From Oceanicaulis sp. (GTDB taxonomy: Bacteria; Pseudomonadota; Alphaproteobacteria; Caulobacterales; Maricaulaceae), in NCBI RefSeq assembly GCF_051859625.1, contig NZ_JBHYFH010000003.1, positions 310,853 to 374,852 of the forward strand: a DNA stretch of 64,000 nucleotides, read 5' to 3'. The notes under the pieces are model-generated. The model saw only the letters and a program-made list of their open reading frames with translations. It was not told the DNA's origin and made no database searches. Below are positions 46,353 through 50,661 of the stretch, in pieces (position 1 is the stretch's first letter; every line of letters starts with the position of its first letter). Made by a program: the position numbers and the translations under genes.

Positions 46353-46417
46353 GCCCGATTGACTAGCTGTTGAACGGATTAAGATAAACCCTTGTTTGAC
46401 CGTAAGGGTAGCTCTCC

Positions 46418-46569
46418 CCTATCCCCACCCCGCCCTCACCCCCTATCCTTGCGGCATGAGCGCTGAGAGCCCTGACATCACAGATCCGAGGATCGCCCGG
46501 GCGCGGGCGATGCGGCAGGCGGGGGCGGAGACCGCCGAGATCGCGCGCGCCTGCGGCGTGGGGGTGAGC
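46418..46569 (+). repeat. Direct repeat copy 1 (upstream region + 5' end of the HTH gene)
   Basis: Near-identical to 47932..48085. Confidence 0.9.
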
Positions 46570-46587
46570 CGCCAGCGGCCCACCTGA
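46456..46587 (+). pseudogene. Truncated copy of the HTH gene
   Basis: MSAESPDITDPRIARARAMRQAGAETAEIARACGVGVS, then diverges and stops. Confidence 0.7.
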
Positions 46588-47931: not shown

Positions 47932-48085
47932 CCTATCCCCCACCCCGCCCTCACCCCCTATCCTCACCGCCATGAGCGCTGAGACACCTGACATCACAGA
48001 TCCGAGGATCGCCCGGGCAAGGACGATGCGGGTGGCGGGGGCGGAGACCGCCGAGATCGCGCGCGTCTGCGGCGTGGGGGTGAGC
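47932..48085 (+). repeat. Direct repeat copy 2
   Basis: Near-identical to 46418..46569. Confidence 0.9.
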
Positions 48086-48679
48086 ACCATCTATCGCTGG
48101 GCCGAGGCCCATGGCTTTCGCGTCGCCGATCTGGAGGCCGCGGCCTGGGCCGCGTCGGGGCGGGGTGACGCGCCCTCTCTTTGTCATTCGCCGGTTTATC
48201 CGGGGAATCCATGCCGTGACCTGTCCTCCACTCAACCGGAATGGATCCCCCGCACAGGGCGGGGGATGACAGAGGGAGAGGGAGCGCCTCACGCGGCGGG
48301 AGGCCCCGGATCAAGTCCGGGGTTTCAGGCTGGGAAAGAGAGTGAAGAGACCGACGACGCCGAGATCACGGCGGCGCAATGGGCGGCGATGGCGCGGGGG
48401 TTGAAACAGCGCGCTGTGCGCCTGACCGAGGCCGGGCGCCTGCGCCAGGCCGAGCAGGCGCTGCGGCTGGCCGAACGCTATGAGCGGATGCAGGCCAGCG
48501 CCGCGCCGGCGCCGGCAAAGGATGACGGCGTGGATTATCACGCCCTGCTGGAAGCCAAGCTGACCCGGCTGCACGAGCACTTGCGCGAGAAGGCCGGGCT
48601 GAAAGAGGGCGAGGACTTCACCGACGCCCACCGCGCCGCCCTGGGCATCCCGCCCCTGCCGCCCGAGTATGGCGGGTGA
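47972..48679 (+). CDS. N-terminal HTH protein carrying in-frame palindromic inserts
   Basis: AETAEIARVCGVGVSTIYRWA HTH; C-terminal amphipathic helices. Confidence 0.7.
   Translation: MSAETPDITDPRIARARTMRVAGAETAEIARVCGVGVSTIYRWAEAHGFRVADLEAAAWAASGRGDAPSLCHSPVYPGNPCRDLSSTQPEWIPRTGRGMTEGEGAPHAAGGPGSSPGFQAGKESEETDDAEITAAQWAAMARGLKQRAVRLTEAGRLRQAEQALRLAERYERMQASAAPAPAKDDGVDYHALLEAKLTRLHEHLREKAGLKEGEDFTDAHRAALGIPPLPPEYGG
48182..48271. repeat. 90-bp REP-like palindrome inside the CDS, in frame
   Basis: TGTCAT...GGAATCCAT / ATGGATCCCC...ATGACA; codon-aligned 30 aa CHSP...WIPRTGRGMT. Confidence 0.75.
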
Positions 48680-48689
48680 CGCGGGGAGA

Positions 48690-48833
48690 GGGAGATGGCA
48701 AGATCGGGGTCTTGCCATGACGATGTGTGGTTAGCCTTCTTCGTCTCCCGCTCCCCTCCCCCTACCCTCCAGCGTCATCCCAAGACCCCGTTCATGGGAT
48801 CTCAGATGGCAAGAACACGTCTTGCCATGACGA
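48690..48833 (+). repeat. 144-bp direct repeat, left of GIY-YIG
   Basis: Two GGCAAGA-loop-TCTTGCC hairpins plus CGTCATCCC...GGGATC. Confidence 0.9.
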
Positions 48834-48857
48834 AGGCAGGGAACGCACACTTCGTGT

Positions 48858-49205
48858 ATGGCGCGTGTTTTCTACACTTATATACTCTGCAATCGCCCGC
48901 ACGGCGTGCTCTATTGCGGCGTCACCAATGACCTGGTGCGCCGGGTCCACGAGCACCGCTCAGCGCGCGGGGGCGTCTTCACGACGCGCTACAAGGTGAG
49001 GTGGCTGGTCTGGTTCGCAGGCCATGAAATTCCGGGGGCCGCCATCGGGCAGGAAAAGACGATCAAAGGCTGGCCGCGCGCCTGGAAGGTGAACCTGATC
49101 GAGACGGACAATCCCGACTGGTGCGATCTCTGGCCGGTGATTTCTCAGGCGGCGGGTGAGATGGGAGAGGGCAAGAACACGTCTTGCCATGACGATGTGT
49201 GGTGA
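48858..49205 (+). CDS. Small GIY-YIG nuclease
   Basis: FYTYIL...LYCGVTNDLVRRVHEH, EKTIKGWPRAWKVNLIE.DNPDW.DL. Confidence 0.9.
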   Translation: MARVFYTYILCNRPHGVLYCGVTNDLVRRVHEHRSARGGVFTTRYKVRWLVWFAGHEIPGAAIGQEKTIKGWPRAWKVNLIETDNPDWCDLWPVISQAAGEMGEGKNTSCHDDVW

Positions 49206-49306
49206 GCCTTCTCCGCCTCCCGCTCCCCTCCCCCTACCCTCCAGCGTCATCCCAAGACCCCGTTCTTGGGATCTCAGATGGCAAGATCGGGGTCTTGCCT
49301 TGACGA
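49163..49306 (+). repeat. 144-bp direct repeat, right of GIY-YIG
   Basis: Near-identical to 48690..48833, hairpin loops in swapped order. Confidence 0.9.
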
Positions 49307-49347: not shown

Positions 49348-50661
49348 CTACGCCGGCAGGCTGACCCGTGCGCGCAGGCCGCCGAGCGGGGAGTCCTCAA
49401 GGCGCAGTTCGCCGCCATGGGCGCGCAGGGTGTCGCGGGCGATGGCGAGGCCGAGGCCCACGCCCTTGCGGTTGGCGTTGCGGCTTTCATCGAGGCGGGA
49501 GAAGGGTTTGAACGCCTCCTCGCGCTGATCGCCGGGAATGCCGGGGCCGTCATCATCAATCAGGATTTCAATGCGCGAACCGTTGCGGCGCGCGCTCAGG
49601 CGCACATGTCGCGCATGGGCTGAGGCGTTGGACACCAGATTGGCGAGGGCGCGCTTGAGCGCGCTTTCGCGCGCCGGCGCGGTCAGCCCGTCTTCCAGCT
49701 CCAGCTCCAGATCGACGCCCTCGCGCGCCGCGTCATCGGCCAGGGTTTCGCACAGGGCGGTGAGGTCGAGCGCGTCCGCCTCCTCCCCCGCCTGACCGCG
49801 GGCGAAGGCGAGATATTCCTCCAGCGCCGCCTCCATGTCCGCGAGATCGCGGCGGGCGGCGTCGCGCTCCTCGCTTTGCGGCATCAGGGCGAGCTGCAGG
49901 CGCAAACGGGTCAGCGGGGTGCGCAGGTCATGACTGACACCCGCCAGCAATTGCGTGCGCTGTTCGATATGGCGTTTCAGGCGCGCGCGCATGTCGAGAA
50001 AGGCCGCGCTGGCGCGGCGCACTTCGCGGGCGCCGGCGGGCTTGAACCGCTCCACATCCTGACCTCTGCCGAACGCTTCAGCGGCCTCCGCCAGCTGGCG
50101 GATGGGTTTGACCTGATTGCGGATGAACAGGATGGCGACGGTCAGCAGGAGCCCCGTGGCGATAAACAGCCAGATCAGGAAGATATGCCCGGTGGTGGCG
50201 AACACCCGGTCGCGCACGGCGATGAAGCGCAGCACGCCGCCATCCACCTGCACCCGGATGTCCACGTAAGAGGGATAGCGCGTGGTGTCGAACCAGAAGG
50301 CGTGATCGAGCTCCGCCCCCAGCGCGCTGCGCAGCGTGCGGTCGAGCGCCCGGAAGAAGGCCGTGCGGCGCGTGGTGGGCAAGGTGTCGCCCTCGCGATA
50401 CTCGACGCTGAGATCAGTCGTGGCGAAGGCGAGATTGGCCAGCGCGTCAAACTGTTCAGGACCGTCACGCTCAAACAGCCTGACCACCAGCGACACCTCG
50501 CCGGCGACGCTCTCAGAGAGGCGCGCCGTGGTGGTCTGCCAGTGCTGATCGAAAAAGGCCCAGGTCACCGCCCCCTGCATCAGCGCGACGGGCAGCACGA
50601 TGATCAGGAGCGAGCGCTCAAACAGGCCCTTGGGCAGATAGGGTTTGAGGGAAAAGCGCAT
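49348..50661 (-). CDS. EnvZ-like sensor histidine kinase
   Basis: TM-HAMP, GVSHDLRTPLTRL, NLVSNA, DDDGPG, GVGLGL. Confidence 0.92.
   Translation of the reverse strand: MRFSLKPYLPKGLFERSLLIIVLPVALMQGAVTWAFFDQHWQTTTARLSESVAGEVSLVVRLFERDGPEQFDALANLAFATTDLSVEYREGDTLPTTRRTAFFRALDRTLRSALGAELDHAFWFDTTRYPSYVDIRVQVDGGVLRFIAVRDRVFATTGHIFLIWLFIATGLLLTVAILFIRNQVKPIRQLAEAAEAFGRGQDVERFKPAGAREVRRASAAFLDMRARLKRHIEQRTQLLAGVSHDLRTPLTRLRLQLALMPQSEERDAARRDLADMEAALEEYLAFARGQAGEEADALDLTALCETLADDAAREGVDLELELEDGLTAPARESALKRALANLVSNASAHARHVRLSARRNGSRIEILIDDDGPGIPGDQREEAFKPFSRLDESRNANRKGVGLGLAIARDTLRAHGGELRLEDSPLGGLRARVSLPA

Follow-up and report, generated by a model that had tools for sequence, protein, structure and literature searches.

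A small GIY-YIG gene lying between two nearly identical clusters of hairpins in Oceanicaulis sp. raises the question of whether the hairpins are the substrate of the neighbouring protein, and whether gene and hairpins spread together. An earlier note on this DNA had proposed a possible REP-mobilising unit, with a layout parallel to that of RAYT transposases flanked by REPs. We analysed the locus in its window, a stretch of 64,000 nucleotides from contig NZ_JBHYFH010000003.1 of assembly GCF_051859625.1; coordinates given below without a contig label are positions in this window.

Organisation of the locus

The GIY-YIG ORF lay in the interval between the stop codon of an HTH-protein gene (47972–48679) and the stop codon of a convergent histidine-kinase gene (49348–50661). 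Two composite repeats of about 140 bp each (48693–48832 and 49166–49305) were placed one on either side of the ORF (48858–49205). Their 106-nt core (48709–48814 vs. 49181–49286) showed 96% identity with a period of 472 bp. Each repeat had four parts, a GGCAAGA hairpin, a 50-nt pyrimidine-rich spacer, a CCCAAGA hairpin, and a second GGCAAGA hairpin. The features along the window were as follows.

48693–48722, minus strand: H1-left, SRM-like hairpin CGTCAT-GGCAAGA-CCCCGA-TCTTGCC-ATC (minus-strand reading)
48723–48772, no strand: spacer S-left, 50 nt, pyrimidine-rich, inside the 106-nt core (96% identity with the right copy)
48773–48801, plus strand: R-left, SRM-like hairpin CGTCAT-CCCAAGA-CCCCGT-TCATGGG-ATC
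48804–48832, minus strand: H2-left, SRM-like hairpin, minus-strand loop CGTGT, start codon 25 nt downstream
48858–49205, plus strand: ssn-like gene, 115 codons, single GIY-YIG domain, core ending near 49148
49146–49205, plus strand: C-terminal tail of this genome only, 1-nt deletion near 49149
49166–49194, minus strand: H2-right, SRM-like hairpin, loop CGTGT, C and not A after the stem (CTC for ATC)
49195–49244, no strand: spacer S-right, 94% identical to S-left
49245–49273, plus strand: R-right, SRM-like hairpin CGTCAT-CCCAAGA-CCCCGT-TCTTGGG-ATC
49276–49305, minus strand: H1-right, SRM-like hairpin, loop CCCCGA, 5′ flank CGTCAA

The pattern GGCAAGA-N5-6-TCTTGCC(A/T)TGACG occurred four times in the window (48697–48722, 48808–48832, 49170–49194, and 49280–49305), against 0.00 expected from shuffles. 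The two CCCAAGA hairpins, CGTCATCCCAAGA...TGGGATC (48773–48801 and 49245–49273), had the plus-strand pattern CGTCATCCCAAGA-loop-TC(A/T)TGGGATC. The architecture described in the earlier note was reproduced in three respects. The repeats with two GGCAAGA hairpins and a GGGATC arm flanked the GIY-YIG gene where it had placed them, the plus-strand loop order was TCGGGG then ACACG on the left and ACACG then TCGGGG on the right, and the last ~15 codons of the ORF fell inside the right repeat.

All six hairpins shared one frame, CGTCAT, an 8-bp stem, a loop of 5–6 nt, the returning stem, and ATC, either exactly or with one base off. The two stem classes, GGCAAGA/TCTTGCC and CCCAAGA/TCTTGGG, differed in a compensatory manner, GG in one arm being replaced by CC and CC in the opposite arm by GG, and R-left is in this sense the inverted partner of H1. 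The motif strand was plus for the two CCCAAGA hairpins and minus for the four GGCAAGA hairpins. A module can thus be written as motif(−), spacer, motif(+), motif(−), in which the neighbouring (+)(−) pair forms a near-palindrome of ~60 nt. For R-right and H1-right this palindrome was near-perfect and resembled a REPIN doublet. Folded as ssDNA, the modules were more stable than shuffled sequences, with z values between −3.2 and −4.1.

The GIY-YIG protein

Pfam assigned the ORF to GIY-YIG (PF01541 alone, residues 5–79, E 9e-11). The catalytic-type residues were Y8, Y19, R29, H33, E66, and N85, and the first five of these were invariant in 38 homologs. The AlphaFold model (pLDDT 92.6) showed one compact GIY-YIG domain, whose best structural matches were UPF0213 BH0048, the Slx1 nuclease domain, and UvrC-N. 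A dN/dS of 0.08–0.21 indicated purifying selection on the gene. A sequence search of the PDB with phmmer matched no chain, and NCBIfam gave no match.

The protein resembles the UPF0213/YhbQ group (E. coli YhbQ; B. halodurans BH0048, PDB 1ZG2) as a stand-alone GIY-YIG domain of ~100 aa, and this group also gave the best structural match. It differs from YhbQ in sequence, with 24% identity and a local BLAST match of just 22 residues, and in a conserved C-terminal W-x-R-x-W-K...NPxWxDL block, which is missing from YhbQ.

Probable assignment to the Ssn family

The 94-aa protein SsnA of N. meningitidis consists of a single GIY-YIG domain (CDD cd10448). It binds the NTS hairpin CGTCATTCCCGCGMAVGCGGGAATCYRG as ssDNA only, on that strand only, and its cut in ssDNA lies 5′ of the motif at a distance of a few nt (Chenal et al., Nat Commun 2025, PMC11893778). 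In the NTS, the three bases before the palindrome weigh most for cutting and the C just after it for binding, and alanine mutants of SsnA Y6, Y17, and E64 kept binding but lost nuclease activity (PMC11893778). Motifs were reported in the flanks of 71% of Ssn homologs and on both sides in 42%, and the role proposed for the hundreds of genome-wide NTS in Neisseria is restriction of transforming ssDNA (PMC11893778).

Ssn proteins are formally defined by a BLASTP match to SsnA (CAX49033.1) with E <1e-10 and at least 75% coverage, or by cd10448 as top CDD match. Our assignment was made via bridging homologs, residues, and motif frame, which stand in for the SsnA/cd10448 comparison. The protein has the size expected of the family (a single GIY-YIG domain, <150 aa, typically 90–100). 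Y8, Y19, and E66 were spaced as Y6, Y17, and E64 of SsnA with a two-residue offset. The expected flanks, CGTCAT ahead of the stem and C following the palindrome, were found in all six copies, at most one base off.

In 30 homolog loci of this order, the density of the SRM pattern was 0.56/kb up to 500 bp from the gene and 0.034/kb further away, a 16-fold difference. For GTCA-hairpins in the same loci, the density was 2.38/kb within 300 bp and 0.29/kb further away, an 8-fold difference; 16 of the 30 loci had at least one such hairpin beside the homolog, and 10 had them on both sides. Homologs of this genus carried near-canonical NTS in their flanks, and the stems differed between protein clades. 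The 25-nt NTS core with at most one mismatch was detected in 54 of 401 sampled Alphaproteobacteria, a count that takes in one unpublished genome (G082), whose single match supports no conclusion here; the reversed control gave zero. In L105, one of the NTS-rich alphaproteobacteria, a 52%-identical homolog had a Neisseria-type NTS perfect at 28/28 positions, located 130 bp upstream of it, and on its downstream side a variant at 25 bp.

From these results, the ORF probably encodes a member of the Ssn family, a predicted ssDNA nuclease, with the six hairpins beside the gene as its cognate Ssn-related motifs; we put the probability of this reading at about 0.8. The cassette is a fresh example of the Ssn nuclease/hairpin system published in 2025 and not a new mechanism. 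Small GIY-YIG genes of this kind are truly and generally associated with flanking CGTC-type palindromes of their own, as the 8- to 16-fold enrichment in the 30 loci shows; the earlier note had proposed to test this in homologs from other genomes. That note had also cautioned that the association might have been published. This was the case, for both the NTS-ssnA-NTS layout and the analogy with RAYT/REP and IS200/IS605 are in PMC11893778.

Its suggestion that the nuclease nicks these palindromes agrees, by analogy, with the published SsnA biochemistry (PMC11893778). If the protein behaves like SsnA, it would bind a hairpin while the motif strand is single-stranded. Recognition would depend on the stem sequence, on the CGTCAT that precedes it, and on the C that directly follows it, and the protein would cut the motif strand only, a few nt 5′ of the motif. 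There are four minus-strand and two plus-strand motifs, and each strand therefore has predicted cut sites to the left and to the right of the gene. The cellular role, again by analogy, may be processing or restricting motif-bearing ssDNA. The restriction role in Neisseria is not simply transferable, because here there are six substrates only, all beside the gene.

Similarities and differences between this locus and the Neisseria Ssn/NTS-SRM system can be set side by side. Both have a single-domain GIY-YIG protein of ~100 aa, oriented CGTCAT...ATC hairpins on both sides of the gene, and a conserved stem with a free loop, and NTS that are perfect or nearly so flank homologs of the present protein. 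The stems are different, GGCAAGA/CCCAAGA here compared with TCCCGCG, and they escape the published SRM pattern. Six copies, all at the gene, compare with hundreds genome-wide in Neisseria. The conserved four-part module per side (hairpin, spacer, inverted hairpin, hairpin) is a further difference.

Copy number and variation of the hairpin

Exact matching and BLAST-short, both run on the complete 3.23-Mb assembly, found neither the hairpin nor the 145-bp module elsewhere. The genome total was four H and two R copies, all inside 620 bp. The genome-wide count proposed in the earlier note thus returned a single locus, and the identification of the hairpin as a genome-wide REP was rejected. The published degenerate SRM pattern (HGTCWY..YYVSBRH..) matched none of the six hairpins, and by this pattern SRM hairpins were found on neither side of the gene, because the stem letters GGCAAGA and CCCAAGA do not conform to YYVSBRH. 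The pattern was not enriched in the genome, with 43 matches vs. 17–38 in Markov-1 simulations.

Covariation was evaluated over 35 motif copies from eight loci. Pairing was retained in 98% of the stem cells, four of the eight pairs were altered on both sides, and none of 500 shuffles reached the observed covariation. Loops were free to vary. The CGTCAT...ATC frame was retained in these copies while the stems changed in a compensatory manner.

When 185,579 species genomes were scanned for exact matches to the hairpin, 32 loci were returned. The alphaproteobacterial loci carried TGGAT-GGCAAGAC-loop-GTCTTGCC-ATGACG, and no GIY-YIG homolog was detected in the stretch around the match (up to 8 kb). 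Matches in Collinsella and cyanobacteria appear unrelated and were set aside. As a separate observation, the variant TGGAT-GGCAAGA(C/A)-loop-GTCTTGCC-ATGACG was conserved at 1–2 copies per genome in distant alphaproteobacterial lineages (L046, L047, L048, L051, L060, L067, L073, and L077), so this stem class is widespread at low copy.

Could the hairpins be ordinary intergenic elements, either of the REP/BIME type or acting at the transcription level (as terminators or stabilisers of mRNA, for example), around a passenger GIY-YIG gene with whose protein they have no specific partnership? Intergenic regions of this genus are rich in varied palindromes that swap at fixed positions, and GGCAAGAC-type hairpins also occur in alphaproteobacterial genomes without a nearby homolog, as this explanation would allow. 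We nevertheless regard it as very improbable. Orthologs at 69–84% protein identity are accompanied by the same two stem types, and the density of GTCA-hairpins beside homologs is 8 to 16 times that of the DNA >500 bp from the gene at these loci. No terminators or promoters were predicted at the hairpins, T-tracts were absent, and Rfam had no family for them, giving sub-threshold chance matches only. The CGTCAT and ATC flanks also coincide with the positions important for cutting and binding by SsnA (PMC11893778).

Orthologous cassettes and relatives

Orthologs on metagenome contigs showed 84, 81, and 69% protein identity, and the five orthologous cassettes spanned 69–84%. L078 and L100 had the same gene order, HTH gene, ssn gene, kinase, and regulator, with a full hairpin-spacer-hairpin-hairpin module on both sides. 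Ortholog contigs carried the same hairpins on every side where the contig reached beyond the gene. H1-left was 100% identical to the L079 copy over 33 nt, although the dS between the two ssn genes was ~1.2. The flanks of L078 were just 80% identical to those of the present genome, and its ssn gene was equally diverged. As gene and flank divergence agree (~80%) and the cassettes share one locus, a long vertical residence is indicated. Gene and modules are an old, co-inherited unit between the HTH and histidine-kinase genes.

No ortholog was detected in any of the 26 other species of the genus, where the best homolog had 56% protein identity. In G014, whose flanks are 91–95% identical, and in G013, the same intergenic region contained unrelated palindromic elements, and local alignment of these regions to both modules gave chance scores only, without a deletion scar. 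In G023 (C1:1064284–1067391) and G024 (C1:2253142–2256222; loci L093 and L094), a gene of ~1030 codons lay between the HTH and kinase genes. This gene, which takes the place of the ssn cassette, has internal repeats and a signal-peptide-like start. The HTH–kinase slot is a variable hotspot of the genus. The comparison with relatives suggested in the earlier note therefore gave a divided answer: the closer relatives lacked the cassette, while L078, with 80%-identical flanks, had it. The cassette is old at this site yet patchy, via losses or allele exchange by homologous recombination.

This distribution also bears on the possibility of a free-standing homing-endonuclease cassette, recently inserted, with the 140-bp repeats as a duplicated target or insertion scar. 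GIY-YIG domains are common among homing endonucleases, and the closest sequenced relatives (91–95% identical flanks) are without the gene. An I-TevI-type enzyme combines a catalytic domain with a separate DNA-binding domain and is associated with an intron, intein, or homing site; the present protein is a single domain in an intergenic region, and no DNA-binding domain was found outside its ~100-aa catalytic core. The empty alleles share no repeat-related or target-like sequence. The complete cassette, including the modules to the left and right of the gene, is already present in a more distant relative whose flanks are 80% identical. In the orthologs the left spacer has diverged from the right one, so the duplication is old. 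We give this possibility almost no weight.

Solo (+)(−) doublets were found in G023, G024, and G041 at two other loci, directly after stop codons. As a side observation, the sister species had a CCCAAGA/GGCAAGG doublet there (L096–L099), and the present genome had unrelated palindromic doublets (C2:691666–691800 and C1:463639–463758). One of the latter is the element found at the ssn locus of G014 and G013. Palindromic doublets thus appear to replace each other at fixed intergenic positions. The solo doublets show turnover of such elements; their distribution does not identify the agent that moves them.

Loop order, spacer homogenisation, and the C-terminal tail

The mirrored loop order had been taken in the earlier note as a sign of recombination or conversion between hairpins. 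In L078, the left module ended with ACACG, and the right module opened with ACACG followed by ACGGGG. Three of four loop positions correspond between the two genomes, two exactly and one with a difference of one base. The mirror order is therefore largely inherited, and it does not support recombination between hairpins.

The spacers behaved differently from the loops. Left and right spacers were 94% identical in the present genome vs. 56–74% in the orthologs, and both spacers were most like the right spacer of L100. From these identities, the core lying between the loops of the hairpins seems to have been homogenised recently in this genome, probably by gene conversion.

Orthologs were 100 aa long and ended in ...SQGGG*, with the TGA immediately before the right module. 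The present genome has lost one G near 49149 (CAGGGCGG to CAGGCGG), which places the ortholog-type TGA (49157–49159) out of frame. The shifted frame encodes 19 different residues, crosses H2-right, and reaches a TGA at 49203. The length of 115 aa and the tail running into the right repeat are thus explained by a 1-nt deletion that bypasses the ortholog TGA.

Comparison with mobile palindrome systems

In RAYT and REP/REPIN systems (Nunvar 2010; Bertels and Rainey 2011, PMC3116915), as here, a single-copy gene is flanked by its presumed target palindromes, and the palindromes occur as inverted doublets just after stop codons. The enzyme at this locus differs, being a hydrolytic GIY-YIG nuclease and not an HUH/Y1 transposase, and the repeat is not amplified to many genome copies. 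Y1_Tnp (PF01797) had zero matches in the whole genome (100% complete). With IS200/IS605, in which TnpA acts on subterminal ssDNA hairpins, the locus shares presumed ssDNA hairpin recognition and directly oriented hairpin ends flanking the gene. It differs from IS200/IS605 in that an HUH transposase is absent, transposition is not in evidence, and the orthologs all occupy one locus.

The discussion of PMC11893778 proposes domestication and draws parallels between NTS-ssnA-NTS and insertion sequences, IS200/IS605, and REP/BIME. A selfish GIY-YIG analogue of RAYT/REPIN or IS200/IS605, in which ssDNA hairpins are nicked and host repair or recombination copies doublets or the cassette elsewhere, is put forward there as a hypothesis. 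Several results fit such an analogue. The R·H doublet is REPIN-like, with two inverted motifs in a palindrome of ~60 nt, and solo R·H doublets follow stop codons at two other loci in the sister species G023, G024, and G041. The cassette is patchy relative to flank divergence, the flanking modules of the present genome are homogenised, and the genome has no Y1 transposase able to move REPs instead.

Other results speak against it. Outside the cassette, this genome has zero hairpin copies. The five orthologous cassettes sit at one locus, where the genes have diverged as far as their flanks (~80%). The species with solo doublets have no cognate ortholog, their best homolog being at most 56% identical. 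No pair of empty and filled sites with a clean insertion junction was found, and the sites show replacement, not insertion. GIY-YIG enzymes hydrolyse DNA and are not known to carry out strand transfer. We therefore consider a selfish analogue unlikely, and the reading of the locus as a REP-mobilising unit is not supported, with no hairpin copies outside it in the genome and with all orthologous cassettes sharing one site.

A related proposal is that the cassette maintains itself, hairpin nicking driving gene conversion of the flanks and sometimes seeding solo doublets just after stop codons. We hold this, too, to be a doubtful prospect. If true, the locus would be a hydrolytic GIY-YIG counterpart of RAYT/REPIN, seen in a minimal, unamplified state.

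Significance of the probable Ssn assignment

Under the Ssn-family reading, the basic picture published in 2025 is unchanged by this locus. What is new here are the stems beyond the published pattern, the copies confined to a single locus, the conserved module, the compensatory stems, the homogenised core, and the frameshifted tail. The Ssn hairpin vocabulary is widened to stems outside the published search pattern, and as that pattern misses these stems, pattern-based surveys undercount Ssn-motif pairs. With six sites in two compensatory stem classes, the locus offers a minimal putative enzyme–substrate pair that suits the study of stem reading by a 100-residue protein. The modules, their homogenisation, the patchy cassette, and the solo doublets of sister species are the type of evidence with which to ask whether Ssn genes spread or maintain repeats.

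Other palindromes near the HTH gene and a second Ssn-like gene

Upstream of the ssn-like gene, the first ~38 codons of the HTH gene and its upstream sequence were duplicated ~1.5 kb apart (46396–46587 vs. 47972–48160, 92–93% identical). The duplicates enclose a minus-strand ORF of 408 codons, which had no match in Pfam or NCBIfam, and several REP-like elements. The HTH ORF (47972–48679) itself contains two SRM-like hairpins (48182–48282) without losing its frame. The first is TGTCAT-TCGCCGG...CCGGGGA-ATCCATG and the second, on the minus strand, is TGTCAT-CCCCCGC...GCGGGGG-ATCCAT. This ~100-bp doublet was found with 89% identity in an intergenic position in G013, downstream of the orthologous HTH gene, and G014 had a different insert at the corresponding position of the HTH gene.

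The genome also encodes a second Ssn-like protein outside the window (C1:1377411–1377698; L001/L045), with 96 aa, 57% identity, and different flanking hairpins. Upstream of this gene lie TGTCA-TCCCGGC-cttga-GCCGGGA-TCT and ATCCCGGATCGC...GCGTCCGGGAT. The ATCCCGGATCGC...GCGTCCGGGAT type also overlaps the stop codon of the gene; it has ~9 copies in the genome, three of them within 1 kb of the gene.
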